Below are positions 6,334-62,857 of a stretch of 64,000 nucleotides of DNA, in pieces. Each line of letters opens with the position of its first letter. The stretch's first letter is position 1. The translations under genes and the position numbers were made by a program. The notes beneath the pieces were generated by a model. That model ran no database searches, was not told the DNA's origin, and saw nothing but the letters and a program-made list of their open reading frames with translations. The stretch covers positions 72,230,001 through 72,294,000 of the forward strand of contig OZ024742.1 in assembly GCA_964016885.1 (NCBI GenBank), written 5' to 3'. Origin of the DNA: Eledone cirrhosa (lineage: Eukaryota).

Positions 6334-9300
6334 TGTGGTTAGAAAAAGCTGTCTCACTTACCGCTTTTCATAGGCGCCGCTAAATCCCACTGCTGGTTTC
6401 TCCTCTTCCACGTGCGTCCAACTCCTTAACACCGGGAGCTGCCAAAACTCACGTCCACACCGTTGCTGGTCACCACTAGAGAGAGACCCATCTGCTGGCC
6501 CTTCCAGTCGAGCATCCTTCCGGTCAAGCACCCTTCCGGTCGAGCACTCCCCCGCTTCTAGCCACCGCACACCACACCATACCCACACGCCCCCATGATC
6601 TCAAGGATCAATTTCCCCCCTCGTCCTTCTGCATATGAAAGTCTGCCGTCCAGGTTGGTAGTTTACGACTTCTTCGCGATCTCCGCAGTGTTGGGGAAGC
6701 ACTTTGGGTTTCCTCTTCCTCGGAGTCCATTGACACAGTGATTCTGCGGACATCCAGGACATGACGTGGTACTCCGTCCACGGACACATTGTTCTGGGAA
6801 TTTACGGCCGTCACCATTCCCCTTCCCCATTGAGATGTGCAACGTGCATCTGGGGGCTTAACCCAGACTTCTTCGCCCACCTGCACGAATGCACTCTCTC
6901 TCCCCACTGGCCGTTGTGGTGGCGTGCACGGGTGCCGCCACTCGTATTTGAATACTGCTTTGTGTGGCACCGATTCCTCGACCTGTCCCACCCGAGGGGA
7001 CATGTTGTACCAGAACACTGCCTCCATTGGTGAGATAAGGCCCCACTCCGCCATTGCCTTAATCGTCCGGTGGTGTCGTTCCACAATTCCATTCCCGCTC
7101 GGCCTGTGCGCTGCTCTGAAGAAACGGTCCACCTTCCATCCATCGAACATCTCCCTCAGCGCCTCCGAGCGGAACGCTGCGCTGTTGTCCATCAGCAGTT
7201 CGTCCACAGGGCCCCGCTCCAAGAACACCTCTCTCAACGTCCGCATGATTTCCTCGGCCGTTCCAGTCTTCATCTCCCTCCATATCGCCATCCATCCTGG
7301 TCCACAGTCGACCATCGAGAGGTATGTTCCCTGTCAGTAGTGCACTACATCCACCGCCAATCGCTTCCAGTCGCAATCCACCGGGAGGCTTCCCGTTTCG
7401 TGTACACCCGGGGCGGGATCAATGGACTGACATCGGACGCAGCCTCTGAACACTGTGTCTGTTAACGTCTGAGTCGATTCTCCTGGCTAGGAACAGGCTC
7501 CTATCCACTCCCATGTGGTATATGTCATGCAACCCTTTCAGATCCGAATCGGTCAGCCGACACACGGCAGCTTTCTCATCTTCTACCTCCTCCGGCGCTT
7601 CCATCCAGGCTTTCTTCACCCTACTTAAGACGTGCGCCCTATTTTTCTCTGAGGGCACGAAAACTACGCTCAGCCTCAGGTCGAACTCGGTGGCCAGCTC
7701 TCCTAAAGTTCCCAGGCGGCGCTTTATCAGCATCACCGCCGCCCCTCTCGTTCGCACTCTCTTCTCACTGGTGAGCACTGATCTCACCCATCCGAGTACA
7801 GTAGCCGAGTCGGTGCGTATCTCGATGGTGCGCAGTCTCCACCTCAGGACGAGGTTCACCCCTCTCAACACTGCGTCCAGTTCGACCACATTGATGTGGT
7901 TGCAGTCTTCCTTCTTCCTAAGCCAGGCTGCATCCTCGACCTCAACACCTCCTATCTCCAACGTGACACCCAGCGCTATGCTGCTGGCATCGCACCATTC
8001 GGTCCCGCTCTGTGATTTGGGAACATACCAGCGTCCCCGCACTGGGTCGTAGGCCTTCACCCTCCCCACGATCTCCTGCATCATGGCCACCGTCCTCTCT
8101 CCCACTCTGTCACTCCAAGTCACTCCTCCCGCTCGTCTCTTGACATAGCTGCATGCCGTCCGGAGCCACCCAGCAATCGGGTAGTGACCCACCAACTTTC
8201 CACACACCGAGAAAAGCTCCCGCCTACTCATACTTGGGCCCAGTTCTGGAACTTCATTTCCCCTCTGGAATACCTAGACGCCCGTCCTGTCTCGCCGTAG
8301 CCTAAGTCCCAGCGCGGCTCCTCCCCCCAACACTTCTGACGGCTACGCAGCCAGTCCATACCCCTGTAAATCGCTCGTGACTTCCGCCGCCGACACCACA
8401 GACTCGTCCACTAGGATGTCGTCAATATAGGAGTTAGTGGCCCTCTTCATCTTGTCGGCCTTTCTCAGAATGGTCTTGAGGACCGCCGCCATGATCTTCG
8501 GTGTGGAGCTCAGCCCGAAACCGAGCCTGGTCAGGCAATATGTCCGGCCCTTATACCTGACCAGCTGATACTGCCAGAGCTTCTCGTCTATATGCAATTG
8601 CAAGTATGCCGACTTTAGATCTACGATTGCTGAACCCCCCCCCCCCCGTCATGCGTCTCCACTCACGCAGGGTTTCCCCACAGACATCCGTGACCTCGCC
8701 ATCCGTGTGGCATGACACGTGCTCGTTCAGCTCCCGAAAGTCCAGCACCGGCCTCACCTTGTTCTTCGTGGGTTGCGCCACCGCCATTAACGGCAATACT
8801 CCGCACTTCACCTCCTCTTTCCAGGGAAGCAGTATGCCCTCCACAATCCATCTCTCTACCTCTCGCTCAAACTCGCTCCTAATGTTTCCCTTCAATGTGT
8901 GTTGATAGCAGCCCACTTTGGTCTTCAGTGTTGGTGGTTCTCCCTTCCAGTACCACTCAACAACCCATCGCTGCCCATCGAACACGGCCTTGAAGTCTTT
9001 GTCCTGCACAGTGTAAGCGGGGTATTTCTCCTCGTGGGTCTTCTGGTTCTCCTGTCGCGCACTCACAGCGCATACCGATGCAGCGGCGCCAAACGACACA
9101 CCGACGTTGTTCCCTGTGACGCCTCCTAGACAGCCAATTGCGTCCGTGCCCATAACCACGCCGATCCCATCCACCACGCTGTCTACTATGATGGCAGAAA
9201 GCCTTATTTTCCTTCCCCGTACCGCTATTTCTATCTCGCTGCGACCTCGGCATTCAATTTTCCTGCCGTCGACTGCCCTTACGCTGCTCTTCCTTCTCCA

Positions 9301-10509
9301 CCTCTGCGCCACCCCGCGGTCACCAGTGTCGTCGTACAGCCCGTGTCCACGAGGGCTCGCTGTGGCTTTCCCCTCATGAAGACTTCCACCATGGGCAGCG
9401 CCTCTACTCGTAAGGGGCAACTACCGGCGCAGTAGTTCCCCTTGGATCGTTTCCCAGTTAATAGCGATGTGGCCTGGTCGCTTACACCGGTAGCATATTA
9501 TTTCCGGCCTTGACTCTCTGCAGTCTCTAGCCATGTGCGAGCCCTGGTACCGAAAACAGCGACCTCTAAACGTTCGCGAGCGACCGCGTGCTGTGGTTGT
9601 CTCCCTTTCACCATTTCGCTGTCAGCTGTCTTGAGCCTCTGTAGTTGCTATCGCCGCAACACTCTTCTTGGCATCTTCTGCTATGATCCGGGCTTGTTCC
9701 ACCAGTGAACGCATTTCCATTTCTTTGTAACCCGGGACTTGCTGCAGTTTCACCGCTATGTCGTCTGGAAATCCATTTATGAACGCCAACCGCACCGTGC
9801 ATTCGCATTCCACCTGATATCCAGCCAACATGGCCAATCACCGTATTTCCGCTGCGAAAATGTCAACGCATTCCCCTTGGAGCGAAAGCGGTAAACGGTC
9901 CCTCTGCGAACGCTTCTATCATGCGCCTCTCAATCTTTTGCGCATCTCTTTGGCTGTGTTCGTCCAACTCAAGGAAGAGTACCAACGCGTCCCCCTCGAA
10001 GTACAGTGCCATGAAGTCAGCCACATCTTCTATCTTCTGCAAGCTGGCGACCAGCCGGACTTTTCGCAGCCAAGCGACATCACCTTCTCTGGTAAATGCC
10101 CTGATAGCTTCGCTTGTTCGTAGTCTTGTCGCCATCTTCTAATTTGTCTTGCGGTATGTGATAGAAAAAAAAACAACAGACTCCTCTCTGTTTTTCCAGT
10201 AGCTTTTTTTTTTTTTTTTTTCAATCAGATCTCAGTTTCCAGTGCCGAAATAGCTTGTGGTTAGAAAAAGCTATCTCACTTACCGCTTTTCATAGGCGCC
10301 GCTAAATCCCACTGCTGGTTTCTCCTCTTCCACGTGCGTCCAACTCCTTAACACCGGGAGCTGCCAAAACTCGCGTCCACACCATTGCTGGTCACCACTA
10401 GAGAGAGACCCATCTGCTGGCCCTTCCAGTCGAGCATCCTTCCGGCCAAGCACCCTTCCGGTCGAGCACTCCCTCGCTTCCGGCCACCGCACACCACACC
10501 ATACCCACA
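6334..10509 (-). mobile_element. Full-length-structure LTR retrotransposon (Gypsy-order gag-PR-RT-RNaseH-IN), frameshifted
   Basis: 254-bp TG..CA LTRs at 6334-6587 and 10256-10509 (about 7 differences by eye). TSD GGTTA at 6329-6333 and 10510-10514. RT RPVLDFRELN/GFGL/YIDD, RNase H WCDAS/HINVVELDA/TDS, integrase MDN..F/SGNGIVERHHRTIK. Purine-rich tract before the 3' LTR. Confidence 0.93.
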
Positions 10510-13206: not shown

Positions 13207-15123
13207 CATCATCATCATCATTGTTTAACGTCTATCTTCCACGCTAGCATGGGTTTAGACGGGAATTGTCCTACTTGAAGCAAGATTGGTCGGGTGACCA
13301 TGTCTCGCTTGTATAGGACTGGCTGGCAGGTTTTCTACGGTTGGATGCCCTTCCTAACACCAACCACGTTGACAGTGTGGACTGGGAGGTTTTTACCATG
13401 TTACCTACATCGCCACATTACAGCGTTGACTGTGTTTTTTTTTGTTGTGACACCTACAATACCTCATTTATTTTGGACATAACTTTACAGAGAAAGGGTA
13501 GTGTTGGTGGGGGTGGGGTGGAGTAGGGGTAGTGGGATGGGGTGTATATTTGGTTAAGAGGTGCCTACTGACTGTAGGTTTCGCTTTGTACATAGGCAAG
13601 ACGGGTCTTCTGTATTACTGCGTGGCGCCAAAGCACTCGGTCCAGTGACATTGTCTTAGAGAGGTGTAAGTGTGTAAGGTCGGAATTTATCAAATCGTCC
13701 CAGGTTTTTCTTGGTCTACCTACTCCGTAACTTCCATCAATTTTGATCGCCCTGCACTTTTTTTATACAACTGTCGTCTTTCATGTGCATCACGTGACCA
13801 TACCAACGTAGTCTTCTTTCGAGTAAACAGCATCTGATCTCTCTTATTGCTAACTTCTCACTTAGTTCAATTATGTTTTGCCGTTCGCGTATATTACTAT
13901 TACACATCCAACGGAGCATGGATGCTTTGTTCCTCTCCAGTCTGCGCAGATCCTCTGCACACAAAGCCCAGGTCTCACTGCCATGTAACATTGCTGTTTG
14001 TAAACAGGCATCATACAATCTGCCTTTCATTTTTAGGGAGAAACTTTTAGTGGCCAATAAGCTCTCTGAACTTTTTTCATCCTGTTCTGACTCTAGCTAC
14101 TGTACTTTCAGAAGACTCTCCACCACTGCTGATTTTGTCACCTAGGTAATGGAAAGTGTCCACTATTTCTATAGAACCAACTGGGCAATAGAAGGAGCTA
14201 GTATCCTGTGGGTACTTGCTACTTATTGCACCTGAGCATCGGCCACATATAAAATCTATATTCTTAGTTATCTTACCTGTGATCCCACTACATCTTTTAT
14301 GTACCCATAGTTTGCATTTGGGACATAATATGGAATTTCTGCCTACTCCTTTCCTACACACTGAGCATGGCCATTTCCCAGAGGGTACCTGTACCCTATT
14401 TTCCGTTCTACATATTAGAACTTTAGTCTTAGACAAGTTAACTTTAAGGCCTTTTGATTCTAGGCCATGCTTCCATGTTTGGAATTTCTTCTCTAGTTCA
14501 GCCATAGATTCAACTATGAGCGTTAGATCATCTGCGTATAGAAGTCCCCATGGGCAGCTGGTCTTGAACTCCTCTGTTATAGCCTGAATGGCAATAATAA
14601 ATAGGAGGGGGCTAAGGAGAGAGCCTTGATGAACATCAACTTGTACGCTAAATTCTTCACTATATTCGCTGTTAATTCTAACCTTACTGACTGTTTCTTT
14701 TTACATGGCTTGTATAGCTCTCACAAGCCATTCATCAACACCTAGTTTTCTAAGAGCCCACCAGATAATGGAGTGGGAGGACTCTGTCAAAGGTTTTCTC
14801 CAAGTCAAAAAAAGCTAAGTATAGGGGTTTACTTTTGGCTAGGTACTTCTCCTGTAGTTGTCGTACAAGGAAAAGAGCGTCCGTGGTACTTTTACCTGAC
14901 ACAAACCCAAACTGCATTTCATTTAGATCAATTTTCTCTCTGATTAGTTGCGCTATAACTCTTTCTGTGACCTTCATGATCTGGTCAATCAATTTAATGT
15001 CTCTATAGTTTCCCCTATCTAGGGCATCTCCTTTACCCTTGTAGCAGTTAATAATGATGCTGCTATGCCAGTCATTTGGTATGACCCCATTCTGTATGAC
15101 TTGGTTTACTATCTGGGTGACCA
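13207..15123 (-). mobile_element. RTE LINE 3' portion (RT with inserted C4HC3 zinc finger, 3' UTR, (ATG)n tail)
   Basis: ORFs 14750-15175, 14077-14505 and 13737-14057 carry RTE RT motifs. Same family as 540-3420. Confidence 0.9.
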
Positions 15124-15127
15124 TATA

Positions 15128-16690
15128 CATCATCATCATCATCATTATTTTACATCCGCTCTTCCCTGCTTGCAAGGGTGGGACGGGTCTTATTCAGCAC
15201 AACATCTCTCCACTTGTCACGGTCCTTCGTCATCTCCACCATGAGCTTCAGCGATCTGAGATCTGTTTTCACCACCTCCGCCCATGTTTTTCGTGGTCTA
15301 CCTCTACCACGCCTTCCTTCAACTGGCATTTCCTGGCACTTCTTCACCCATCGGTCATCCTCCATGCGCATCACATGTCAATACCACCTCAGTCTCCTCT
15401 CCCGTACACTACATTCTATCCCTCTCAGACACAGTTTCTCTCTCAACACATTCATGCTGGGTCGTTCACGCACATTGACACTGCACATCCAACGGAGCAT
15501 GCTTGCCTCATTTCTCTCCAGCCGTCGCATATCCTCTGCAGTTGCTGCCCATGTCTCACTACTATGGAACATCGCGCTCCTCACACAGGCATCATATAAC
15601 CGGTCTTTCGTACACAGGTAGAAACCCTTCTTCATCAGCAGAGGAAGCAGCTCCCTAAACTTCTTCCAACCCGTCATTATTCTAGATACTATGGCCTCGG
15701 AACACCCCCCTCCCATGCTAATCTGATCTCCTAGGTACCGGAAGCTATCCACCACTTCTATAGCACCCGCCTGCATTTGAAAAATGTGTCTATCAATGCG
15801 ACTTCTACTGTCTAATTTCCCTGTACATCTACTGCATACATATTTCTCCCTACCTGTTAGTTTGCCTGCTATCCCGCTACATCTCTTGTGTACCCAGGAT
15901 CTGCATTGTGTGCATTTTATAGAAGTTATGCCAGTTCCTTTTCTGCATATCGAACATGGCCATTTCCCCGACGGAATCAAAGTTTTGTCCTCTTTTCTAC
16001 TCATCAACACTTTTGTGCTAGCTAGGTTCACTCTCAGTCCTCTTGCTTCCAACTGCTGATTCCATAGCCAGAATTTATTCTTTAGCTCCTCTACTGATTC
16101 TGCTATAAGAACCAGATCGTCAGCATAGAGAAGTTCCCATGGACAGCCAGTCTTAAACTCCCCTGTTATGGCTTGGAGGACTATAATGAACAAGAGCGGG
16201 CTGAGGACCGAACCTTGATGTACTCCTACTTGTAATTGGAATTCCTTACTAAACTCCATTCCTACCCTGACTTTACTGACAGCACCTCTAGGTCAACAAA
16301 GGCTAAGTATAGTGACTTATTTTTCTCTAAGAACCTCTCTTGCAATTGTCTCACCAAGAAGAGGGCATCTGTTGTACTCTTCCCAGACACAAAACCAAAC
16401 TGCATCTCATCTAGTTTGACCCTTTCTTTAATTAGTTGTGCTAATATCCTTTCTGCCACTTTCATAACCTGATCCATCAGTTTTATACCCCTATAATTGC
16501 TCCTCTCCAGAGCATCCCCTTTACTTTGTAGCAATTTATGAGAATACTGCTGCACCAGTCTTTGGGTATGACACCACCATATATAGCCTGATTGATGATG
16601 CGTGCAACCAATTTAGTGCCTACGTCCCCCGATGCCTTCAGCATCTCAGCAACTATTCCTGATGCTCCAGCAGCCTTACCATTTTTCATT
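15128..16690 (-). mobile_element. Second RTE subfamily copy (RT + zinc finger)
   Basis: GVHQGSVLSPLLF, LYADD, CSIC..CTQC..H..C..CSRC, FRYLG, RRLRWY; (ATG)n tail at 15128-15145. Confidence 0.9.
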
Positions 16691-16715
16691 TCCTTATACA
16701 TATATATATATATAT

Positions 16716-17435
16716 AAATGGAAAAGAATGAAATGAAATTTCATTTCTCACTCTTAGTACGGCTGATAAATATAAGTATGTATACGTACATACATATATG
16801 TATACAGACATACAGTAGTATGTATATATATACATACATGCACACATATATATATGTACGTATGGGTTTACCAAACATTTATTATAATGTTCGCTTTGTT
16901 TGTAAACAAACAGCCCGAATTAAGCCGTACAGTGTTTGGCAACCATCGTCGCCCTTTTGTTCAACACTGACAAAAGAACGATGAACTAGTTTCAAGCTTA
17001 TTAGCTATCGTCAGCATCATATACCTTCCTATCAGATGATTGAACGTTTGAAAGTATATACTTTCCTTATGCATATTAACGGCTGAGCAGCCTAATTTGC
17101 ATATCGAGTGAGTTAGTCAGCCGGGCATACCGAAAACGATAAATGGAAAAGAATGAAATGAAATTTCATTTCTCACTCTTAGTACGGCTGATACTTAAAT
17201 ATAAGTATGTATACGTACATACATATATGTACACAGACGTACAGTAGTATGTATATATATATACATATATGCACACATATATATATGTACGTATGGGTTT
17301 ACCGAACATTTATTATAATGTTCGGTTTGTTTGTAAACAAACAGCCCGAATTAAGCCGTACAGTGTTCGGTAACCATCGTCACCCTTTTGTTCAACACTG
17401 ACGATAGCTAATAAGCTTGAAACTAGTTAATCGTT
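16716..17435 (-). ncRNA. Dispersed ~1.6-monomer copy of the 428-bp hammerhead repeat, ending in an inverted core fragment
   Basis: Same monomer as 31558-42304. Hammerhead core on - at 16978-17020 (AUGAUG-CUGACGA-..-GAAA-CUA-GUU-CAUCGU). Inverted core piece on + at ~17398-17435. Confidence 0.8.
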
Positions 17436-19420
17436 CCAACGGAGCGCGCAAGCTTCATTTCTTTCCAATCTACGCAAGTCTTCTGCACACAGTGCCCAGG
17501 TCTTACTATCATGCAACATTGCGGGTTGTGTGCACGCATCATACAGTCTGCCTTTCATTTTGAGGAAGAAGCCTTTTGTAGCTAACAGTGCTTGTAGCTC
17601 TCTGAACTTCTTCCATCCCATTCTCACTCTGGCTACTGTACTTTCAGAACACCCACCTCTGCTGCTAATTTGGTCACCCAGGTAGCAGAATCTGTCTACT
17701 GCAACTACTGAACCTTCTTGGAATTTGATAGCTCTTGTTTCCTGTGGTTGTTTGCTGCTTACTGCCCCGGTGCGGTGGCTTCATGTAAAACCTATATTTT
17801 TAGCTAAACTACCTGAGATCCCACTACATCTCTTGTGCACCCGTAGTTTGCATTTGGGACAGAGGATAGAATTTCTACCTACACCTTTCCTACACACCGA
17901 GCAAGGCCATCTTCCTGAGGGGATCAGGGCTCTGTATTCCCTTCTACTTACTAGGAACTTATTCTTTGTCTGGTTGACTTTAAGACCCTTTGTTTCTAGG
18001 CCATGCTTCCAGGTTGGAATTTCTTCTCTAATTCTACCATAGACTCAGCTATGAGTGTAAGATCATCCACGTACAGAAGTTTCCATGGGTAGCCGGTCTT
18101 AAACTCCTTTGTATTAGAATCCTAACTTTGCTGACTGCTCCCCTCTACATGGTTTGTACAGCCTTCACAAGCCACTCATCTACTTCTCATTTTCTTAGAG
18201 CCCACCAGATTATGGCATGGGGGACTAATTCCAGGTAGAACATCTTACTTTTAACTAGGTACTTCTCCTGTAGCTGCTTCACCAGAAAGAGAGCATCTGT
18301 TGTGCTTTTACCTGGCACAAATCCAAACGGCATCTCATCTAAATTTACCTGGTACCTAATCAGCTGTTATTTTCATGACCTGGTCCATCAACTTGATGCC
18401 TCTATAGTTTCCTCTATCTAGTGCATCTCCTTTGCACTTGTAGCAGTTGACAAAGATGCTGCTGCGCCAATCATTCAGTTTGACACCATTTGGTTAACAA
18501 GACGTGTGGTTAAGGTGTGACCCACTGACCCAGATGCTTTCAGCATCTTGGCTACTATCCCCAATGGAGTAGCTACTACACTGTTGCTGACTTGTACGGT
18601 TGGGCCCTCTGTAGGGTCCACTTGGGGTAGGGTCTCTTTCTTCCATGCATTCTGTTCATCATCATCATTTAACGTCCATCTTCCACGCTGTTATCTTTCA
18701 CAATGGCTCTTCCATGTTACTTTCTTTTCAGCATCTGTGAGGGCAAGTACACCTTTATCATCACAGACTCACTTCTTACCAATGACATCACAATTTTCCC
18801 TAACGCACTGCCTCACAATCCTGAACACCTCATGTTTCTGGTCTTCATGATGCAAAGCATGCTTGAATTTTTTATCTTCTGCTTTCCTCCTTACTAAGTA
18901 TACTTGTTGTCTAGCTTCCCTCTGGCGTCTATATAGTGTACCCTGCTTCCCACATTCTTCCATTTTTTCAATGCTTGTCTCTTGGCCTTAATTTTCTCAT
19001 CTACCTTACTGTTCTACCACCAAGTCGCTCTCCTTCTCTCTATAGTCCTGCTCCATCCACAGATCTCATCTGTCACTTTCAGTAGATTATCTTTTGGGAA
19101 CTCCAAATGCTCTTCTATATTGAACATCTCAATCCGTTTTTCCTTATAGGCACCGAGAAAAATCTCTCTAAATTTGTTACTGGCTGAGGGCTCTTTCAAC
19201 ATCCATTTCCTTCTCATCCACGTTGCCCTCTGTCTCCAAGTTCATCTAGCTCTGATAATGAAGTCTACTAGGTTATGTTGGGAAGTGCATTCCTCTCCAG
19301 GGAAGGATTTTGTGTTTACCACCGTCACTCTATCTTGTTCTCTGGTAAGGATAAAATCTATCTGACAAACATGTTCACTAGATCTACAGGTGATCAGTTG
19401 ATTGTTGAGTTTTTTGAAGT
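17436..19420 (-). mobile_element. Degenerate RTE LINE (APE end to RT)
   Basis: NFKKLNNQLITCRS..QIDFIL, GWKKFRELQALL and a zinc-finger remnant; many disablements. Confidence 0.8.
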
Positions 19421-23689: not shown

Positions 23690-25246
23690 AGGATTTGCTA
23701 CAAACAGGATGGTTGGACACAACATCAACAAGAACAATTTGCCGAACACAAGGAATGAAAACAATTTACTGGAGAAAACCAATGAGGAAGGTAAACAAAA
23801 TTTATTCAGTGGTAGTTACAGAAGAAACCGAAATTATAAATCGCATTTTTCTTGGAGTTGCGAACTTAATGATGATTTGTTTAATTGTTATAAAATGGCG
23901 AAAAAAAATCCCTCCGTTGGCTATATGAATAGTATGAAGCCACACTGGGACGAAATACATCCAGAGCTAAATCACTTCACTGCCAAACAATTACGCCAAC
24001 AAGCGACGTTTGTTGAACGTAAAAATAAGATAAATATTATTAATTGTAAGTCTGCCAGAACAAACATGGAATCAACAATACGTGCTACAGGTCACCATGC
24101 TACTAGACTTCCTAGCAGCCAGGTCGAACAGTGCTTTGAAACAACTATGCCCGTAAGAAATTTGACACCACGTGTACCATCTGAGTCTGTCTCGACTTTT
24201 TCAAAAGTATAAACAATTGAAATTTTCTCTCAACGAAATCTTCCAGAGAGAAATTAATTCATGTATAAACATTTCTCTTGCTGAACAAAACAACAATACT
24301 AAATAAAATGCAACTAAATAATGAAATCTTACGCGCTATTGACGAAATAGGAGATGAATATTTACGACGGATTAAAACCCACATTTTGGCAAATCAATGC
24401 CTGTTTATATGCCCTAGCAACGACAGTGAAGCATTGTCTTGGTGACAGCAGAGATATTAACAAGAACAAAACACCACAAAAAAAACCATCATCTATATAT
24501 CTAAAACAGATAATGTCTGTCTGTCTGTCCGATCACTAAAACTCGAGAACCACCCAACCGATTGTTTTCAAACTTTACACATGTAATACTTATGATCCTG
24601 TGAGTGTTTTGAACAAAAGAATATTTCAAATTTTCAATGCCCCAGCGACCGTATTAAGCGATTTAGCGATCTCTCTATAATTCTTAGTCTGTCTTTTTAG
24701 ATAGATACATAGCTACGACGTTGCGCCCTTATAATTATTTCTACTTTTGGTACAAGGCCAGCAATTATCCCAGTGTATTACTGGTACTTTATTTTATCGA
24801 CCCCGTAAGGATGAAAGGCAAAGTTAACCGCGCCCTTATAATATCTGTCTGGCTGTCTGCATTACGACATTATGACGCTATCTGTGTGTGTGTGTGTATA
24901 TGTATATATATATAATGTGTGTATATATATATATATACTGTGTAACGTTTTTCGAAATATTTACTTCTGCGTTCACAGATTGATATTTTTAGTTTCAGAA
25001 GATCCCGTTAAGGGTGAAAGCAGCGATTCTTTGCTTAAACTTTAATCTGTTATTTTAATATATATATATATATATTAATATAGATGAGATTCTACAGGTC
25101 TAGAACGGTTTCATTCTTTAGAAATCATCAGGAATCTGGCTATATTAAAACTGTAGAATCTCATCTATATTAACACTTTTATACTCTGCTATGTATTGAG
25201 TACCTTACTTACCGTGGTTACATCCGATTCAACCCGGAATAACTTA

Positions 25247-31510: not shown

Positions 31511-31557
<47 letters not shown>

Positions 31558-31561
<4 letters not shown>

Positions 31562-34500
31562 GGAAAAAAAAAATGAAACGAAATTTCATTTCTCACTCTT
31601 AGTACGACAGTTACTTAAATATAAGTATGTATACGTACATACATATATGTATACAGACGTACAGTAGTATGTATATATATATACATACATGCATACACAT
31701 ATATATGAACGTATGGATTCACCGAACATTTATTATAATGCTCGGTGTGTTTGTAAACAAACATCCCGAATTAAGCAGTACGGTATCTAGCAACCATCGT
31801 TGCTCATTTGTTCAACACTGACAAAGGAATGCTGTACTAGTTTCAAGCTTATTAGCTATCGTCAGCAACGTATACATTCCTGCCAGATGGTTGAACGTCT
31901 GAAAGTATATACTTTTTTATGCATATTAACGGCTAAGCAGGCTAATTTGCATATCGAGTGAGTTATCGGCCGGAGTACCGAAAACGATAAACGGAAAAAA
32001 TGATACGAAATGTTATTTCTCACTCTTAGTACGGCTGTTACTTAAATATAAATATGTATACGTACATATATATATGTATACAGACGTACAGTAGTATGTA
32101 TATATATATACATACATGCACACACATCTATATGAACGTATGGATTCACCGAACATTTATAATAATGCTCGGTGTGTTTGTAAACAAATATCCCAAATTA
32201 AGCCGTACAGTGTCTAGCAACCATCGTTGCACATTTGTTCAACACTGATAAAGGAACGCTGTACTAGTTTCAAGCTTAATAGCCATCGTCAACAACGTAT
32301 ACCTTCCTGCCAGATAGTTGAACGTCTGAAAGTATATACTTTCCTTATGAATATTAATGGCTGAGCAGGCTAATTTGCATATCGAATGAGTTATCGACGG
32401 AGTACCGAAAACGATAAACGGAAAAATGAAACGAAATTTCATTTCTCACTCTTAGTACGGCAGTTACTTAAATATAAGTATGTATACGTACATACATATA
32501 TGTATACAGACGTACAGTAGTATGTATATATATATACATACATGCACACACATATATATGAACGTATGGATTCACCGAACATTTATTATAATGCTCGGTG
32601 TGTTTGTAAACAAACATCCCGAATTAAGCCGTACAGTGTCTAGCAACCATCGTTGCTCATTTGTTCAACACTGACAAAGGAATGCTGTACTAGTTTCAAG
32701 CTTATTAGCTATCGTCAGCAACGTATACATTCCTGCCAGATGGTTGAACGTCTGAAAGTATATACTTTTTTATGCATATTAACGGCTAAGCAGGCTAATT
32801 TGCATATCGAGTGAGTTATCGGCCGGAGTACCGAAAACGATAAACGGAAAAAATGATACGAAATGTTATTTCTCACTCTTAGTACGGCTGTTACTTAAAT
32901 ATAAATATGTATACGTACATACATATATGTATACAGACGTACAGTAGTGTGTATATATATATATACATACATGCACACACATCTATATGAACGTATGGAT
33001 TCACCGAACATTTATAATAATGCTCGGTGTGTTTGTAAACAAATATCCCAAATTAAGCCGTACAGTGTCTAGCAACCATCGTTGCACATTTGTTCAACAC
33101 TGATAAAGGAACGCTGTACTAGTTTCAAGCTTAATAGCCATCGTCAACAACGTATACCTTCCTGCCAGATAGTTGAACGTCTGAAAGTATATACTTTCCT
33201 TATGAATATTAATGGCTGAGCAGGCTAATTTGCATATCGAATGAGTTATCGACGGAGTACCGAAAACGATAAACGTAAAAATGAAACGAAATTTCATTTC
33301 TCACTCTTAGTACGGCAGTTACTTAAATATAAGTATGTATACGTACATACATATATGTATACAGACGTACAGTAGTATGTATATATATATACATACATGC
33401 ACACACATATATATGAACGTATGGATTCACCGAACATTTATTATAATGCTCGGTGTGTTTGTAAACAAACATCCCGAATTAAGCCGTACAGTGTCTAGCA
33501 ACCATCGTTGCTCATTTGTTCAACACTGACAAAGGAACGCTGTACTAGTTTCAAGCTTATTAGCTATCGTCAGCAACGTATACCTTCCTGCCAGATGGTT
33601 GAACGTCTGAAAGTATATACTTTCCTTGTGCATATTAACGGCTGAGCAGCCTATTTTGCATATCGAGTGAGTTATCGGCCGGAGTACCGAAAACGATAAA
33701 CGGAAAAAATGAAACGAAATTTCATTTCTCACTCTTAGTACGGCTGTTACTTAAATATAAATATGTATACGTACATACATATATGTATACAGACGTACAG
33801 TAGTATGTATATATATATACATACATGCACACACATATATATGAACGTATGGATTCACCGAACATTTATAATAATGCTCGGTGTGTTTGTAAACAAATAT
33901 CCCAAATTAAACCGTACAGTGTCTAGCAACCATCGTTGCACATTTGTTCAACACTGATAAAGGAACGCTGTACTAGTTTCAAGCTTAATAGCTATCGTCA
34001 ACAACGTATACCTTCCTGCCAGATAGTTGAACGTCTGAAAGTATATACTTTCCTTATGAATATTAACGGATGAGCAGGCTAATTTGCATATCGAATGAGT
34101 TATTGACGGAGTACCGAAAACGATAAACGGAAAAAATGAAACGAAATTTCATTTCTCACTCTTAGTACGGCTGTTACTTAAATATTAGTATGTATACGTA
34201 CATACATATATGTATACAGACGTACAGTAGTATGTATATATATATACATACATGCACACACATATATATGAACGTATGGATTCACCGAACATTTATTATA
34301 ATGCTCGGTGTGTTTGTAAACAAACATCCCGAATTAAGCCGTACAGTGTCTAGCAACCATCGTTGCTCATTTGTTCAACACTGATAAAGGAAGGCTGTAC
34401 TAGTTTCAAGCTTATTAGCTATCGTCAGCAACGTATACCTTCCTGCCAGATGGTTGAACGTCTGAAAGTATATACTTTCCTTATACATATTAACGGCTGA

Positions 34501-37500
34501 GCAGCCTAATTTGCATATCGAGTGAGTTATCGGCCGGGGTACCGAAAACGATAAACGTAAAAAATGAAACGAAATTTCATTTCTCACTCTTAGTACGGCA
34601 GTTACTTAAATATAAGTATGTATACGTACATACATATATGTATACAGACGTACAGTAGTATGTATATATATACATACATGCACACACATATATATGTACG
34701 TATGGATTCACCGAACATTTATTATAATGCTCGGTGTGTTTGTAAACAAACATCCCGAATTAAGCCGTACTGTGTCTAGCAACCATCGTTGCTCATTTGT
34801 TCAACACTGATAAAAGGAGCGCTGTACTAGTTTCAAGCTTATTAGCTATCGTCAGCAACGTATACCTTCCTGCCAGATGGTTGAACGTCTGAAAGTATAT
34901 ATTTTTCTTATGCATATTAACGGCTGAGCAGCCTAATTTGCATATCGAGTGAGTTATCGACGGGGTACCGAAAACGATAAACGTAAAAAATGAAACGAAA
35001 TTTCATTTCTCACTCTTAGTACGGCAGTTACTTAAATATAAGTATGTATACGTACATACATATATGTATACAGACGTACAGTAGTATGTATATATATACA
35101 TACATGCACACACATATATATGTACGTATGGATTCACCGAACATTTATTATAATGCTCGGTGTGTTTGTAAACAAACATCCCGAATTAAGCCGTACAGTG
35201 TCTAGCAACCATCGTTGCTCATTTGTTCAACACTGACAAAGGAACGCTGTACTAGTTTCAAGCTTAATAACAATCGTTAGCAACGTATACCTTCCTGCCA
35301 CATGGTTGAACGTCTGAAAGTATATACTTTCCTTATGCATATTAACGGCTGAGCAGGCTAATTTGCATATCGAATGAGTTATCGGCCGGAGTACCGAAAA
35401 CGATAAACGGAAAAATGAAACGAAATTTTATTTCTCACTCTTAGTACGGCTGTTACTTAAATCTAAGTATGTATACGTACATACATATATGTATACAGAC
35501 GTACAGTAGTATGTATATATATATACATACATGCACACACATCTATATGAACGTATGGATTCACCGAACATTTATTATAATGCTCGGTGTGTTTGTAAAC
35601 AAACATCCCGAATTAAGCCGTACAGTATCTAGCAACCATCGTTGCTCATTTGTTCAACACTGACAAAGGAACGCTGTACTAGTTTCAAGCTTATTAGCTA
35701 TCGTCAGCAACGTATACCTTCCTGCCAGATGGTTGAACGTCTGAAAGTATATACTTTCATTATGCATATTAACGGCTAAGCAGCCTAATTTGCATATCGA
35801 GTGAGTTATCGGCCGGAGTACCGAAAACGATAGACGGAAAAAATGATACGAAATGTTATTTCTCACTCTTAGTACGGCTGTTACTTAAATATAAATATGT
35901 ATACGTACATACATATATGTATACAGACGTACAGTAGTATGTATATATATATACATACATGCACATACATATATATGAACGTATGGATTCACCGAACATT
36001 TATAATAATGCTCGGTGTGTTTGTAAACAAATATCCCGAATTAAGGCGTACAGTGTTTAGCAACCATCGTTGCTTATTTGTTCAACACTGACAAAGGAAC
36101 GCTGTACTAGTTTCAAGCTTATTAGCTATCGTCAGCAACGTATACCTTCCTGCCAGATGGTTAGAACTTCTGAAAGTATATACTTTCCTTATGCATATTA
36201 ACGGCTGAGCAGCCTAATTTGCATATCGAGTGAGTTATCGGCCGGGGTACCGAAAACGATAAACGGAAAAAATGGAACGAAATTTTATTTCTCACTCTTA
36301 GTACGGCAGTTACTTAAATAAAAGTATGTATAGGTACATACATATATGTATACAGACGTACAGCAGTATGTATATATATATATACATACATGCACACACA
36401 TATATATGTACGTATGGATTCACCGAACATTTATTATAATGCTCGGTGTGTTTGTAAACAAACATCCCGAATTAAGCCGTACAGTGTCTAGCAACCATCG
36501 TTGCTCATTTGTTCAACACTGACAAAGGAACGCTGTACTAGTTTCAAGCTTAATAGCAATCGTCAGCAACGTATACCTTCCTGCCACATGGTTGAACGTC
36601 TGAAAGTATATACTTTCCTTATGCATATTAACGGCTGAGCAGGCTAATTTGCATATCGAATGAGTTATCGGCCGGAGTACCGAAAACGATAAACGGAAAA
36701 AATGAAACGAAATTTTATTTCTCACTCTTAGTACGGCCGTTACTTAAATATAAGTATGTATACGTACATACATATATGTATACAGACGTACAGTAGTATG
36801 TATATATATATACATACATGCACACACATATATATGAACGTATGGATTCACCGAACATTTATTATAATGCTCGGTGTGTTTGTAAACAAACATCCCGAAT
36901 TAAGCCGTACAGTGTCTAGCAACCATCGTTGCTCATTTGTTCAACACTGACAAAGGAACGCTGTACTAGTTTCAAGCTTATTAGCTATCGTCAGCAACGT
37001 ATACCTTCCTGCCAGATGGTTGAACGTCTGAAAGTATATACTTTCCTTGTGCATATTAACGGCTGAGCAGCCTATTTTGCATATCGAGTGAGTTATCGGC
37101 CGGAGTACCGAAAACGATAAACGGAAAAAATGAAACGAAATTTCATTTCTCACTCTTAGTACGGCTGTTACTTAAATATAAATATGTATACGTACATACA
37201 TATATGTATACAGACGTACAGTAGTATGTATATATATATACATACATGCACACACATATATATGAACGTATGGATTCACCGAACATTTATAATAATGCTC
37301 GGTGTGTTTGTAAACAAATATCCCAAATTAAACCGTACAGTGTCTAGCAACCATCGTTGCACATTTGTTCAACACTGATAAAGGAACGCTGTACTAGTTT
37401 CAAGCTTAATAGCTATCGTCAACAACGTATACCTTCCTGCCAGATAGTTGAACGTCTGAAAGTATATACTTTCCTTATGAATATTAACGGATGAGCACGC

Positions 37501-40500
37501 TAATTTGCATATCGAATGAGTTATTGACGGAGTACCGAAAACGATAAACGGAAAAAATGAAACGAAATTTCATTTCTCACTCTTAGTACGGCTGTTACTT
37601 AAATATTAGTATGTATACGTACATACATATATGTATACAGACGTACAGTAGTATGTATATATATATACATACATGCACACACATATATATGAACGTATGG
37701 ATTCACCGAACATTTATTATAATGCTCGGTGTGTTTGTAAACAAACATCCCGAATTAAGCCGTACAGTGTCTAGCAACCATCGTTGCTCATTTGTTCAAC
37801 ACTGATAAAGGAAGGCTGTACTAGTTTCAAGCTTATTAGCTATCGTCAGCAACGTATACCTTCCTGCCAGATGGTTGAACGTCTGAAAGTATATACTTTC
37901 CTTATACATATTAACGGCTGAGCAGCCTAATTTGCATATCGAGTGAGTTATCGGCCGGGGTACCGAAAACGATAAACGTAAAAAATGAAACGAAATTTCA
38001 TTTCTCACTCTTAGTACGGCAGTTACTTAAATATAAGTATGTATACGTACATACATATATGTATACAGACGTACAGTAGTATGTATATATATACATACAT
38101 GCACACACATATATATGTACGTATGGATTCACCGAACATTTATTATAATGCTCGGTGTGTTTGTAAACAAACATCCCGAATTAAGCCGTACTGTGTCTAG
38201 CAACCATCGTTGCTCATTTGTTCAACACTGATAAAGGAACGCTGTACTAGTTTCAAGCTTATTAGCTATCGTCAGCAACGTATACCTTCCTGCCAGATGG
38301 TTGAACGTCTGAAAGTATATATTTTTCTTATGCATATTAACGGCTGAGCAGCCTAATTTGCATATCGAGTGAGTTATCGGCGGGGTACCGAAAACGATAA
38401 ACGTAAAAAATGAAACGAAATTTCATTTCTCACTCTTAGTACGGCAGTTACTTAAATATAAGTATGTATACGTACATACATATATGTATACAGACGTACA
38501 GTAGTATGTATATATATACATACATGCACACACATATATATGTACGTATGGATTCACCGAACATTTATTATAATGCTCGGTGTGTTTGTAAACAAACATC
38601 CCGAATTAAGCCGTACAGTGTCTAGCAACCATCGTTGCTCATTTGTTCAACACTGACAAAGGAACGCTGTACTAGTTTCAAGCTTAATAGCAATCGTTAG
38701 CAACGTATACCTTCCTGCCACATGGTTGAACGTCTGAAAGTATATACTTTCCTTATGCATATTAACGGCTGAGCAGGCTAATTTGCATATCGAATGAGTT
38801 ATCGGCCGGAGAACCGAAAACGATAAACGGAAAAATGAAACGAAATTTTATTTCTCACTCTTAGTACGGCTGTTACTTAAATCTAAGTATGTATACGTAC
38901 ATACATATATGTATACAGACGTACAGTAGTATGTATATATATATACATACATGCACACACATCTATATGAACGTATGGATTCACCGAACATTTATTATAA
39001 TGCTCGGTGTGTTTGTAAACAAACATCCCGAATTAAGCCGTACAGTATCTAGCAACCATCGTTGCTCATTTGTTCAACACTGACAAAGGAACGCTGTACT
39101 AGTTTCAAGCTTATTAGCTATCGTCAGCAACGTATACCTTCCTGCCAGATGGTTGAACGTCTGAAAGTATATACTTTCATTATGCATATTAACGGCTAAG
39201 CAGCCTAATTTGCATATCGAGTGAGTTATCGGCCGGAGTACCGAAAACGATAGACGGAAAAAATGATACGAAATTTTATTTCTCACTCTTAGTACGGCTG
39301 TTACTTAAATATAAATATGTATACGTACATACATATATGTATACAGACGTACAGTAGTATGTATATATATATACATACATGCACACACATATATATGAAC
39401 GTATGGATTCACCGAACATTTATAATAATGCTCGGTGTGTTTGTAAACAAATATCCCGAATTAAGGCGTACAGTGTTTAGCAACCATCGTTGCTTATTTG
39501 TTCAACACTGACAAAGGAACGCTGTACTAGTTTCAAGCTTATTAGCTATCGTCAACAACGTATACCTTCCTGCCAGATGGTTAGAACTTCTGAAAGTATA
39601 TACTTTCCTTATGCATATTAACGGCTGAGCAGCCTAATTTGCATATCGAGTGAGTTATCGGCCGGGGTACCGAAAACGATAAACGGAAAAAATGAAACGA
39701 AATTTTATTTCTCACTCTTAGTACGGCAGTTACTTAAATAAAAGTATGTATAGGTACATACATATATGTATACAGACGTACGGCAGTATGTATATATATA
39801 TATACATACATGCACACACATATATATGTACGTATGGATTCACCGAACATTTATTATAATGCTCGGTGTGTTTGTAAACAAACATCCCGAATTAAGCCGT
39901 ACAGTGTCTAGCAACCATCGTTGCTCATTTGTTCAACACTGACAAAGGAACGCTGTACTAGTTTCAAGCTTAATAGCAATCGTCAGCAACGTATACCTTC
40001 CTGCCACATGGTTGAACGTCTGAAAGTATATACTTTCCTTATGCATATTAACGGCTGAGCAGGCTAATTTGCATATCGAATGAGTTATCGGCCGGAGTAC
40101 CGAAAACGATAAACGGAAAAAATGAAACGAAATTTTATTTCTCACTCTTAGTACGGCCGTTACTTAAATATAAGTATATATACGTACATACATATATGTA
40201 TACAGACGTACAGTAGTATGTATATATATATACATACATGCACACACATATATATGAACGTATGGATTCACCGAACATTTATTATAATGCTCGGTGTGTT
40301 TGTAAACAAACATCCCGAATTAAGCCGTACAGTGTCTAGCAACCATCGTTGCTCATTTGTTCAACACTGATAAAGGAACGCTGTACTAGTTTCAAGCTTA
40401 TTATCTATCGTCAGCAACGTATACCTTCCTGCCAGATGGTTGAACGTCTGAAAGTATATATTTTTCTTATGCATATTAACGGCTGAGCAGCCTAATTTGC

Positions 40501-42300
40501 ATATCGAGTGAGTTATCGGCCGGGGTACCGAAAAAGATAAACGTAAAAAATGAAACGAAATTTCATTTCTCACTCTTAGTACGGCAGTTACTTAAATATA
40601 AGTATGTATACGTACATACATATATGTATACAGATGTACAGTAGTATGTATATATATACATACATGCACACACATATATATGTACGTATGGATTCACCGA
40701 ACATTTATAATAATGCTCGGTGTGTTTGTAAACAAACATCCCGAATTAAGCCGTACAGTGTCTAGCAACCATCGTTGCTCATTTGTTCAACACTGACAAA
40801 GGAACGCTGTACTAGTTTCAAGCTTAATAGCAATCGTCAGCAACGCATACCTTCCTGCCACATGGTTGAACGTCTGAAAGTATATACTTTCCTTATGCAT
40901 ATTAACGGCTGAGCAGGCTAATTTGCATATCGAATGAGTTATCGGCCGGAGTACCGAAAACGATAAACGGAAAAAATGAAACGAAATTTTATTTCTCACT
41001 CTTAGTACGGCTGTTACTTAAATCTAAGTATGTATACGTACATACATATATGTATACAGACGTACAGTAGTATGTATATATATATACATACATGCACACA
41101 CATCTATATGAACGTATGGATTCACCGAACATTTATTATAATGCTCGGTGTGTTTGTAAACAAACATCCCGAATTAAGCCGTACAATATCTAGCAACCAT
41201 CGTTGCTCATTTGTTCAACACTGACAAAGGAACGCTGTACTAGTTTCAAGCTTATTAGCTATCATCAGCAACGTATACCTTCCTGCCAGATGGTTGAACG
41301 TCTGAAAGTATATACTTTCATTATGCATATTAACGGCTAAGCAGCTTAATTTGCATATTGAGTGAGTTATCGGCCGGAGTACCGAAAACGATAAACGGAA
41401 AAAATGAAACGAAATTTTATTTCTCACTCTTAGTACGGCTGTAACTTAAATATAAGTATATATACGTACATACATATATGTATACAGACGTACAGTAGTA
41501 TGTATATATATATACATACATGCACACACATATATATGAACGTATGGATTCACCGAACATTTATTATAATGCTCGGTGTGTTTGTAAACAAACATCCCGA
41601 ATTAAGGCGTACAGTGTCTAGCAACCATCCTTGCTCATTTGTTCAACACTGACAAAGGAACGCTTTACTAGTTTCAAGCTTATTAGCTATCATCAGCAAC
41701 GTATACCTTCCTACCAGATGGTTGAACGTCTGAAAGTATATACTTTCCATATGCATATTAACGGCTGAGCAGCCTAATGTGTATATCGAGTGACTTATCG
41801 GCCGGGGTACCGAAAACGATAAACGGAAAAAATGAAACGAAATTTCATTTCTCACTCTTAGTACGGCTGTTACTTAAATCTAAGTATGTATACGTACATA
41901 AATATATGTATACAGACGTACAGTAGTATTTATATATATATACATACATGCACACACATATATATGAACGTATGGATTCAACGAACATTTATTATAATGC
42001 TCGGTGTGTTTGTAAACAAACATCCCAAATTAAGCCGTACAGTGTCTAGCAACCATCGTTGCTCATTTGTTCAACACTGACAAAGGAACGCTGTACTAGT
42101 TTCAAGCTTATTAGCTATCGTCAGCAACGTATACCTTCCTGCCAGATGGTTGAACGTCTGAAAGTATATACTTTCCTTATGCATATTAACGGCTGAACAG
42201 CCTAAATTGCATATCGAGTGAGTTATCGGCCGGAGTACCGAAAACGATAAACGGAAAAAATGAAACGAAATTTCATTTCTCACTCTTAGTACGGCTGTTA

Positions 42301-42304
<4 letters not shown>
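31558..42304 (-). repeat. Tandem array of 25 monomers of ~428 bp (+~55 bp), each with a type-I hammerhead ribozyme motif; higher-order repeat structure
   Basis: Monomer period 424-430 from recurring ORF-track starts (31627, 32054, 32480, 33335...41886). Flanked on both sides by (TA)n. Confidence 0.97.
31810..31896 (-). ncRNA. Minimal type-I hammerhead ribozyme (first monomer; recurs every ~428 bp)
   Basis: Consensus minus-strand read: GUUCAAC-CAU-CUGGCA-GG-AAGG-UAU-ACGUUG-CUGACGA-U-AGCU-AAUA-AGCU-U-GAAA-CUA-GUA/CAGCGU-U-CCUU-UGUCAG-U-GUUGAAC. Monomer 1 has two helix I substitutions relative to this consensus. Predicted cleavage lies between 31835 and 31834. Confidence 0.85.
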
Positions 42305-42382
<78 letters not shown>

Positions 42383-46168: not shown

Positions 46169-46171
<3 letters not shown>

Positions 46172-47350
46172 CAAACACACGGAGCATTATAATAAATGTT
46201 CGGTGAATCCATACGTACATATATATATGTGTGCATGTATGTATATATATATATACATACTACTGTACGTCTGTATACATATATGTATGTACGTGTACAT
46301 ACTTATATTTAAGTAACAGCCGTACTAAGAGTGGGAAATGAAATTTCGTTTCATTTTTTCCGTTTATCTTATCGTTTTCGGTGCACCCGGCCGATTAACC
46401 CACTCGATATGCAAATTGGGCTTCTCAGCTGTTAATATGCATAAGGTAAGTATATACGTTCAACAATCTGACAGGAAGGTATACGTTGCTGACGATAGCT
46501 AATAAGCTTGAAACTAGTACAGCGTTCCTTTGTCAGTGTTGAACAAACGAGCAACGATAGTTGCTGGACACTACGGCTTAATAAGGGATGTTTGTTTACA
46601 AACACACCGAGCATTATAATAAATGTTCGGTGAATCTATACGTACATATATATATATGTGTGCATGTATGTATATATATATACATACTACTGTACGTCTG
46701 TATACATATATGTATGTACGTGTACATACTTATTTAGCAGGGTGGTAGAATGATTGAAGGTCGTTAGTTGCCAATGTGGTAAGTAATAGTATCCTTGTTG
46801 AATTATCTTGTCGACATAGACGTGAGGGAAGGTCCCTCGATCTATTTACCATCTTTGTATTTACGATATTCCTTTCGTCAGGTCGCCAATTCCAGCAGCA
46901 TGGATTATAGATGTTATTGAGACACGAGTAACATAATAATGATTTCAACAGCAGAAATTAGAGATGAAATGTATGTTTATTTTTGATGTAGCACAAACAA
47001 TGTTTGTTAACTTATATGGTTGAAGTTACAGATAAAAAGGTTACAAAAGGGAATGTGCCATTGCGCTGGAAAGCCGGCGAGGCTAGGGTGCAATATCTCA
47101 CTGTTACATTATGCGTGTTGCTGGCTCGAAGTTCCTGGTACAAGAGAGAGATTCTTCAAATCTTCGCGGGGAATTTCTTCCTCAGGGCGCGTAGGGATAC
47201 ATCCTCTTCTACTGGCGCTGATTGGCTGAACTGAGCCAAATCACGCACAGAGAATGTATGTGAGCCCGCGGAATGTAGGTCACTACACTTATATTTAAGT
47301 AACAGCCGTACTAAGAGTGGGAAATGAAATTTCGTTTCATTTTTTCCGTT

Positions 47351-47352
<2 letters not shown>
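46169..47352 (+). ncRNA. Dispersed ~1.5-monomer copy of the 428-bp hammerhead repeat in the opposite orientation, interrupted by a solo LTR
   Basis: Intact core on + at 46483-46525 (ACGTTG-CTGACGA-TAGCTAATAAGCTT-GAAA-CTAGTA-CAGCGT). Flanked by (TA)n and (TG)n. Confidence 0.85.
46734..47287. mobile_element. Solo LTR-like insertion with 5-bp TSD CTTAT
   Basis: CTTAT at 46729-46733 and 47288-47292; ends CACTACA and begins T(G)TAGCAG. The monomer sequence rejoins across it. Confidence 0.7.
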
Positions 47353-47412
<60 letters not shown>

Positions 47413-62600: not shown

Positions 62601-62857
62601 TACTGGATATATTACTGGGAGAGAAAAGATGTTACAAATCTGTTCACACAATCACTTCCCAGGACCAGGTTGTAAACTATCCAACTGAATTTTTTAACAG
62701 CATGGAACTAGCAGGAATTCCTCCACACAACCTGATAGTGAAGCTTGGAGCATCGGTTATATTACTTCATAATCTGGATCCCCCAAAACTTTGCAATGGC
62801 ACAAGACTCATTATTAAAAATATGATGCCTAATGTCCTAGACGTCACAAACATGTGA
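59700..62857 (+). mobile_element. Decayed Helitron Rep/PIF1-like helicase coding region
   Basis: YDSLQYPLIF, PDLFITFT, EWQNRGLPH (Rep), AGTGK, ASSGIA, GGRTAHS, LAGDF, LCNGTRL; many stops. Confidence 0.9.

Follow-up and report, generated by a model that had tools for sequence, protein, structure and literature searches.

Does a hammerhead ribozyme that is scattered through the genome of Eledone cirrhosa keep its structure because its RNA has to cut itself whenever the repeat spreads, or have core and stems simply been inherited by the copies of a young repeat? The question is raised by a 64,000-nucleotide stretch of contig OZ024742.1 (assembly GCA_964016885.1, positions 72,230,001 to 72,294,000 of the forward strand; hereafter the window), which contains a tandem array and two dispersed copies of one repeat. 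An initial annotation had described compensatory changes in helix I and unchanged catalytic nucleotides among these loci, suggesting selection on RNA structure during propagation. Here we explore the repeat family and its relatives in the genome. The explanation we favour, with a probability of roughly 0.8, is that the copy at 16.9 kb is a decaying dispersed copy of an element whose core and helix II are kept since its rounds of spreading need RNA self-cutting, and whose single copies mutate.

The hammerhead and its repeat family

Read on the minus strand, 17045-16959 is predicted to fold as a long hairpin carrying a type I hammerhead (-22.7 kcal/mol, z -2.3; z -1.3 for the plus strand), the parts of which are listed in Table 1. 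The consensus hammerhead core, C3 U4 G5 A6 N7 G8 A9, G12 A13 A14, A15.1-U16.1 and H17 (PMC3088659), is complete in this copy as CUGACGA, GAAA and GUU (17014-16984, minus strand). The whole core spans 17014-16985 with the triplet at 16986-16984, and from the consensus the cut site is predicted between 16984 and 16983. An open helix I, with helices II and III closed around the core, agrees with the folds and with the covariation across families given below.

The canonical 10.1-11.1 pair at the base of helix II is missing, U·U standing there in 126 of 130 copies, and helix III of the family is a single pair. U·U at 10.1-11.1 is a tolerated natural hammerhead variant (PMC3088659; axolotl HHR_Amex2), and in a small lineage of the family (L061, L116, L180) it is replaced by C·A or C-G. 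Helix III is closed by the palindrome ACUAGU (16990-16985), as in hammerheads that act as dimers (helix III of 1-2 bp and a palindromic loop); this palindrome is predicted to be the dimer contact, with a duplex of about -6.7 kcal/mol. Weak activity is predicted from the U·U and the one-pair helix III, and eight of nine predicted Xenopus retrozymes remained uncut in vitro in one study (bioRxiv 10.64898/2026.07.22.740005). Rfam scans gave no hammerhead match at gathering score, nor at E up to 10, the sub-threshold matches being to an AT-rich tract. Judged by its anatomy, the motif reads as a type I hammerhead, non-canonical at 10.1-11.1 in a way already reported elsewhere, and self-cutting is likely.

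Table 1. Copies of the 428-bp repeat in the window and parts of the hammerhead at 16.9 kb (window positions).
Feature	Position	Strand	Details or basis
Dispersed insertion, subfamily c8	16714..17402	minus	about 1.6 units; one complete hammerhead
Short inverted piece	17398..17437	plus	joined via 5-nt microhomology
Tandem array, subfamily c2	31556..42375	minus	25 units of about 428 bp; 8-unit higher-order repeat
Dispersed copy, subfamily c1	46169..46733	plus	hammerhead at 46458-46544
Type I hammerhead motif with long helix I extension	16959..17045	minus	sequence reading, fold
Helix I, 5' strand AUGAUG	17015..17020	minus	17019, private C>U; 17017, subfamily A of pair 4
Core strand CUGACGA (C3-A9)	17008..17014	minus	sequence reading
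Helix II	16994..17007	minus	four AGCU/AGCU pairs above a U·U at 10.1-11.1; loop AAUA; sequence, fold
GAAA core strand and one-pair helix III	16985..16993	minus	closed by palindrome ACUAGU
H17 (U) and helix I, 3' strand CAUCGU	16978..16984	minus	H17 at 16984; 3' strand at 16983-16978

In the 3.0-Gb genome 27,698 sites match the core pattern exactly, as against none for the reversed control, and a pattern from outside the ribozyme has 20,559 as against six in its control. Copies are 96-98% identical across many contigs. GC content of the array is 35-36% (below 45% in retrozymes), and no open reading frame of at least 120 aa lies inside it, so the unit lacks protein-coding capacity. By anatomy and by the sequence features tested, the 428-bp repeat is a non-LTR retrozyme. 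From the fetched loci, 239 copies cover the ribozyme; 211 near-full copies, from 122 loci, were sorted into subfamilies, and the three loci of the window belong to three of them (Table 1). The consensus of the array at 31556-42375 lies within two letters of dispersed subfamily c2. The 3' end of the insertion at 16714..17402 is the long end point of the family, joined to (AT)n, and its inverted neighbour holds core, GUU and 9 nt past the predicted cut, without the 5' strand of helix I. The 3' end of the copy at 46 kb appears to resume at 47287-47353, past an unrelated insert. About 90 nt past the cut site every unit has, in the corresponding position, a stable hairpin (window about 33431-33454 on the minus strand); its pairing is mostly retained among subfamilies, and c12 and c16 show apparent double changes. 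Folded as a circle, the whole unit has a predicted z of -6.8.

Inherited and private changes

All letters of helix I given by the initial annotation are correct: AUGAUG/CAUCGU at 16.9 kb, CUGACA/UGUCAG at 46 kb, and ACGUUG/CAGCGU in the array, where 18 of 25 copies have it. What they mean differs from case to case. The double change of U·G to A-U at pair 4 is a real difference between subfamilies (c8 has ACGAUG/CAUCGU) and amounts to one inherited event, and the change of the triplet from GUA to GUU is a genuine c8 trait, found in 30 of 33 copies. Any C>U within a C-G pair yields U·G by itself. The supposedly compensatory C-G to U·G change at 16.9 kb is a private CpG-type mutation, its U occurring in only 2 of 33 sampled c8 members, and this copy differs from the c8 consensus at eight positions, seven of them C>T or G>A. 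With the private U the predicted probability of helix I falls to 0.26, the c8 median being 0.98. Selection of this change is thus rejected, since it is private and destabilising; by weakening the predicted helix I it argues for decay of the copy rather than for selection on it. One small lineage of three copies did spread with U·G at that pair. Having just one complete ribozyme, with helix I weakened, the copy at 16.9 kb is probably dead. The CUGACA at 46 kb, also proposed as compensatory, is an ordinary single G>A transition found in 2 of 20 sampled c1 members; although rare in c1, it is the c8 consensus.

The intact cores of both dispersed copies, as observed there, are what chance would give. 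In the remainder of their units divergence from the array is 7.8% and 6.0%, at which the chance of 11 unchanged core sites is 0.41 and 0.51 (joint P≈0.2, about 0.21). Comparison of the three loci was therefore rejected as evidence for selection, having no power: among the four lines cited from the window, only the double change at pair 4 counts, and once. The claim of selection itself is supported by evidence from outside the window, namely the trees of copies and the covariation among sister families.

If copying depends on the ribozyme, its core is expected to change in single copies, with no such change passed on to groups of copies. Changes were counted by parsimony on terminal (private) and internal (inherited) branches, for 23 sites (11 of the core, four of the palindrome and eight of helix II) and for 229 comparison sites outside the long hairpin. 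In 130 copies the 23 sites showed 34 terminal and no internal changes, against 515 and 138 in the comparison sites (Fisher P 0.0006). As this sample was partly found through the ribozyme, the count was repeated on 67 copies found by the outside pattern, with 21 terminal and no internal changes against 279 and 111 (P 0.002). A third and strictest test took one copy from each of 61 loci, a different tree program and a tree from which the ribozyme columns had been masked; it gave 12 terminal and no internal changes against 250 and 98 (P 0.04). Eight other ribozyme positions (N7, 10.1, 11.1, loop 2 and H17) carry eight inherited changes. The consensuses of eight subfamilies point the same way, with none of the 23 sites and 54 of the 229 varying (P 0.003). 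Core and helix II have thus never changed in the sampled lineages that left further copies, and single inserted copies do mutate there.

Private changes are fewer in the 23 sites than elsewhere (0.52-0.91 as against 1.09-1.22 per site); in the 67 copies the terminal rates, 0.91 and 1.22, do not differ significantly (P 0.11), and in the masked test of 61 loci the rate in the 23 sites is half of the background. Fully neutral decay is therefore not demonstrated, and terminal branches also contain unsampled rounds of copying. Rates of copies against a consensus, which were lower in the core, were not relied on since they mix private with unresolved inherited changes.

That no selection on structure has acted, and that core and pairs of a young clonal family descend by luck from a few sources, we hold to be very improbable. 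Such luck would fit the 158 of 229 non-ribozyme sites that also lack inherited change in the 61-locus test, the P of 0.04 in the strictest test and the fact that helix I shows one double change only within the family; it has to contend with zero inherited changes at the 23 sites in all three tree tests while eight neighbouring ribozyme positions do change, and with the sister families described below.

The least probable of the readings we weighed attributes conservation of the ribozyme to selection acting on the host, the copies being homogenised as DNA in the manner of a functional satellite. In its favour, long tandem arrays that show higher-order structure do exist, and it was also put forward for the cricket satellite pDo500 (PMC2837043). 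In the array of the window, however, 7 of 25 units have a mutated core (five C3U, two G5A), and these mutants were multiplied through duplication of the 8-unit higher-order repeat, hence at the DNA level. Core mutations also occur in single copies, and conservation is complete only on the branches that lead to further dispersed copies.

Helix I, sister families and palindromes

In inherited changes, helix I varies no less than the remainder (0.58 per site as against 0.48 elsewhere). Its changes concentrate at pair 4, and one inherited change, present in two copies, breaks pair 3. In the 130 copies pair 4 is U·G 55 times, A-U 39, G·U 29, C-G once, U·U four times, A·G once and A·A once, and is thus paired in 124. 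Genome-wide matches to one shared core with GUA, a scope that leaves out c8, loop variants and G·G, gave U·G 5281, A-U 2156, G·U 1181, U·U 210 and A·G 77, counts that reflect clonal descent rather than independent events. Only a single double change at pair 4 appears on the trees, and helix I has no other within the family. When pair 4 was masked, three of the four U·U copies remained close to the base of the U·G clade, with supports of 0.76-0.90, so that the path probably ran through U·U, an intermediate that survives in the genome; its direction depends on a midpoint root. Simple recombination as the origin of the U·U copies is not favoured, given the basal branching of these three and their mixed diagnostic letters on both sides, and gene conversion is a possible source.

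Wider comparison was made with a relaxed core pattern that excludes U at 10.1 (16,877 matches, 322 in the control). A 466-bp family is homologous to the 428-bp family, with 72% identity over 86 nt upstream of the ribozyme, and has AUAUUG/CAAUAU as helix I and GUUGU/ACAAC or GAUGU/ACAUC as helix II. It thus differs at many positions of both helices yet retains pairs and core, which is hard to reconcile with inheritance by luck. Positions 10.1-11.1 of the sister families are G-C, C-G or A-U. In 15 rows from five families all 90 cells of helix I are paired, and five of its six pairs show double changes; helix II is paired in 84%, and four of its five pairs show them. None of 500 shuffles reached the covariation score. 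These rows were picked by hand (14 of 18 listed rows and the window copy; L005 was dropped as redundant), and since rows with a cut or poor helix I (L116, L200, L211) had been excluded, together with L213 and L225, the figure is biased upward. Further hammerhead repeat families were seen as well (L182-L223, of 466 bp; L186-L199 and L214, of 311 bp; L211, L215 and L216), with differing helices and loop-3 palindromes and many of them in head-to-head arrays. A short hairpin element at 25040-25190 of the window (minus strand), between (AT)n tracts, resembles the 311-bp family and has a degenerate hammerhead-like core.

The free dinucleotide of loop 3 is self-complementary (TA, GC or AT) in 95 of the 100 matches listed, the five exceptions being four units of one array and one match without helices. 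Switching from one palindrome to another takes two changes, which fits the pairing of two ribozymes, and inheritance by luck leaves the three different palindromes unaccounted for. A more far-reaching reading, which we offer tentatively and consider rather unlikely, takes the genome as a fossil record of the compensatory walk at pair 4 (A-U or G·U to U·U to U·G), whose unpaired intermediate persists in a small lineage, and the palindromes as a self-recognition code. If true, a hammerhead would cut only with a partner bearing the identical palindrome (CUAG, CGCG or CAUG), and the number of copies of each variant would serve as a natural measure of fitness for dimer-dependent self-cleavage in an animal.

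Copying, insertion and known retrozymes

Copies of the 428-bp family end at their 3' side 216 or 275 nt past the cut site, 59 nt apart, and are joined there to (AT)n; in the fetched loci 39 ends are short and 43 long. At 40 of 86 loci pieces lie on both strands. Since the cut site is contained in the inverted piece at 17398-17437, this piece was copied from a circle or from a multimer that had not been cut. Penelope-like elements have been described as having tails, inverted copies and microsatellite targets (bioRxiv 10.1101/2021.04.23.441226). A young RT/GIY-YIG family of this genome, whose copies are 96-98% identical to each other (138 of 41,418 candidates were scored), likewise has two 3' end points at (AT)n, 58 nt apart (17 short, 16 long). 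This family (L226 2893-5347, L227-L257) is very abundant, with a CX4CxxC linker and a frame of about 1,240 aa, and its 3' repeat carries a minimal hammerhead with a long helix II. Pfam gave no match in the full frame of 1238 aa, and the assignment is based on a GIY-YIG match in a fragment (E 6e-05) and on motifs read by eye. The 3' repeat of this one family examined has no DNA similarity to the 428-bp unit, and no pLTR matching that unit was found in it; with no sequence shared, we infer a Penelope-like partner rather than identify one.

Two nearer candidates were rejected. The RT/GIY-YIG neighbour in L226 lies in opposite orientation across (AT)n, with another hammerhead and another 3' repeat, and is not the parent; the open reading frames beside the 16.7-kb copy are fragments of RT and PHD and are not Penelope-like. 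Fragments of this LINE type (RT, and RT with PHD) lie at 13900-17900, 1844-2425, 25913-26557 and 50300-50872 of the window, and similar segments recur around the 16.7-kb insertion. Elsewhere in the window, a GC-rich segment at 6499-10469, flanked on either side by a copy of a 16-bp tandem motif and with weak integrase and RVT_3 Pfam matches, is probably a decayed LTR-type retrotransposon, and fragments similar to PIF1 helicases at 61724-62857 probably belong to a Helitron.

Taken together with published retrozymes, a cycle can be proposed for the 428-bp element. Tandem transcripts would be cut after GUA or GUU; given the one-pair helix III and its palindrome, cutting likely takes place in a dimer, formed when adjacent ribozymes pair through their palindromes. 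The monomer would be closed to a circle by a host ligase, as proposed here from the published cases, and a Penelope-like RT/GIY-YIG enzyme would copy the circle into (AT)n, giving insertions of more than one unit that are often two-armed. Self-cutting is likely needed in each round of spreading. Retrozymes are described in much the same way in PMC7229834, their multimeric transcripts being self-cut and circularised, with a Penelope-like enzyme as the presumed copying enzyme, and dimer action of hammerheads with a short palindromic helix III is reported in PMC4209133 and PMC6765202.

The motif might instead be kept for something other than cutting, for instance because a host protein or the reverse transcriptase that mobilises the element recognises its fold, which we consider improbable. 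The weak helices II and III, the poor in vitro cutting of metazoan Penelope-type hammerheads (PMC4209133) and insertions that end 216 or 275 nt past the cut site rather than at it would suit such a role. The invariant positions, though, are those of the catalytic consensus, N7 being variable and H17 varying among A, U and C only, and in the axolotl, retrozymes that share these weak features do cut as dimers (PMC7229834).

Metazoan non-LTR retrozymes (PMC7229834; bioRxiv 10.64898/2026.07.22.740005) share with the 428-bp family short AT-rich non-coding units with a hammerhead each, occurrence as monomers, dimers and arrays, and Penelope-like elements in the same genome. Unlike them, the family has fixed 3' ends in (AT)n. 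Its ribozyme unites two weak features that, in the same source (PMC7229834), the axolotl has in separate families, the one-pair helix III with palindromic tetraloop of HHR_Amex1 and the U·U at the helix II base of HHR_Amex2. With the dimer hammerheads of newt satellite 2 and Penelope-like elements (PMC4209133; PMC6765202) it has in common a helix I of 6 bp, a helix II of 4 bp, a very short helix III, a palindromic loop and proposed dimer action; it is not of the minimal form with long helix II, which in this genome is the form of the autonomous element. A further difference is that switching of the palindrome between families can be seen here.

Another close precedent is the Dolichopoda satellite pDo500 (PMC2837043), where the ribozyme is also more conserved than the rest, with compensatory stem changes and a variable N7, an analysis of the type that the initial annotation had proposed. 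There, in the parts consulted, sequences are pooled across species and inherited and private changes are not separated, whereas here the constraint is placed on propagating lineages. In the literature searched we found neither such a split nor purifying selection at the subfamily level in retrozymes. The class, the dimer model and stem covariation have all been published, so the result sharpens known biology and is of no new kind. Palindrome switching between families adds support for the dimer model from natural sequences. What hammerheads do in retrozymes and in elements of the Penelope type has been called unclear (bioRxiv 10.1101/2021.04.23.441226); completely conserved propagating branches together with mutating single copies point to a need in the copying cycle of the element, not to a function for the host.
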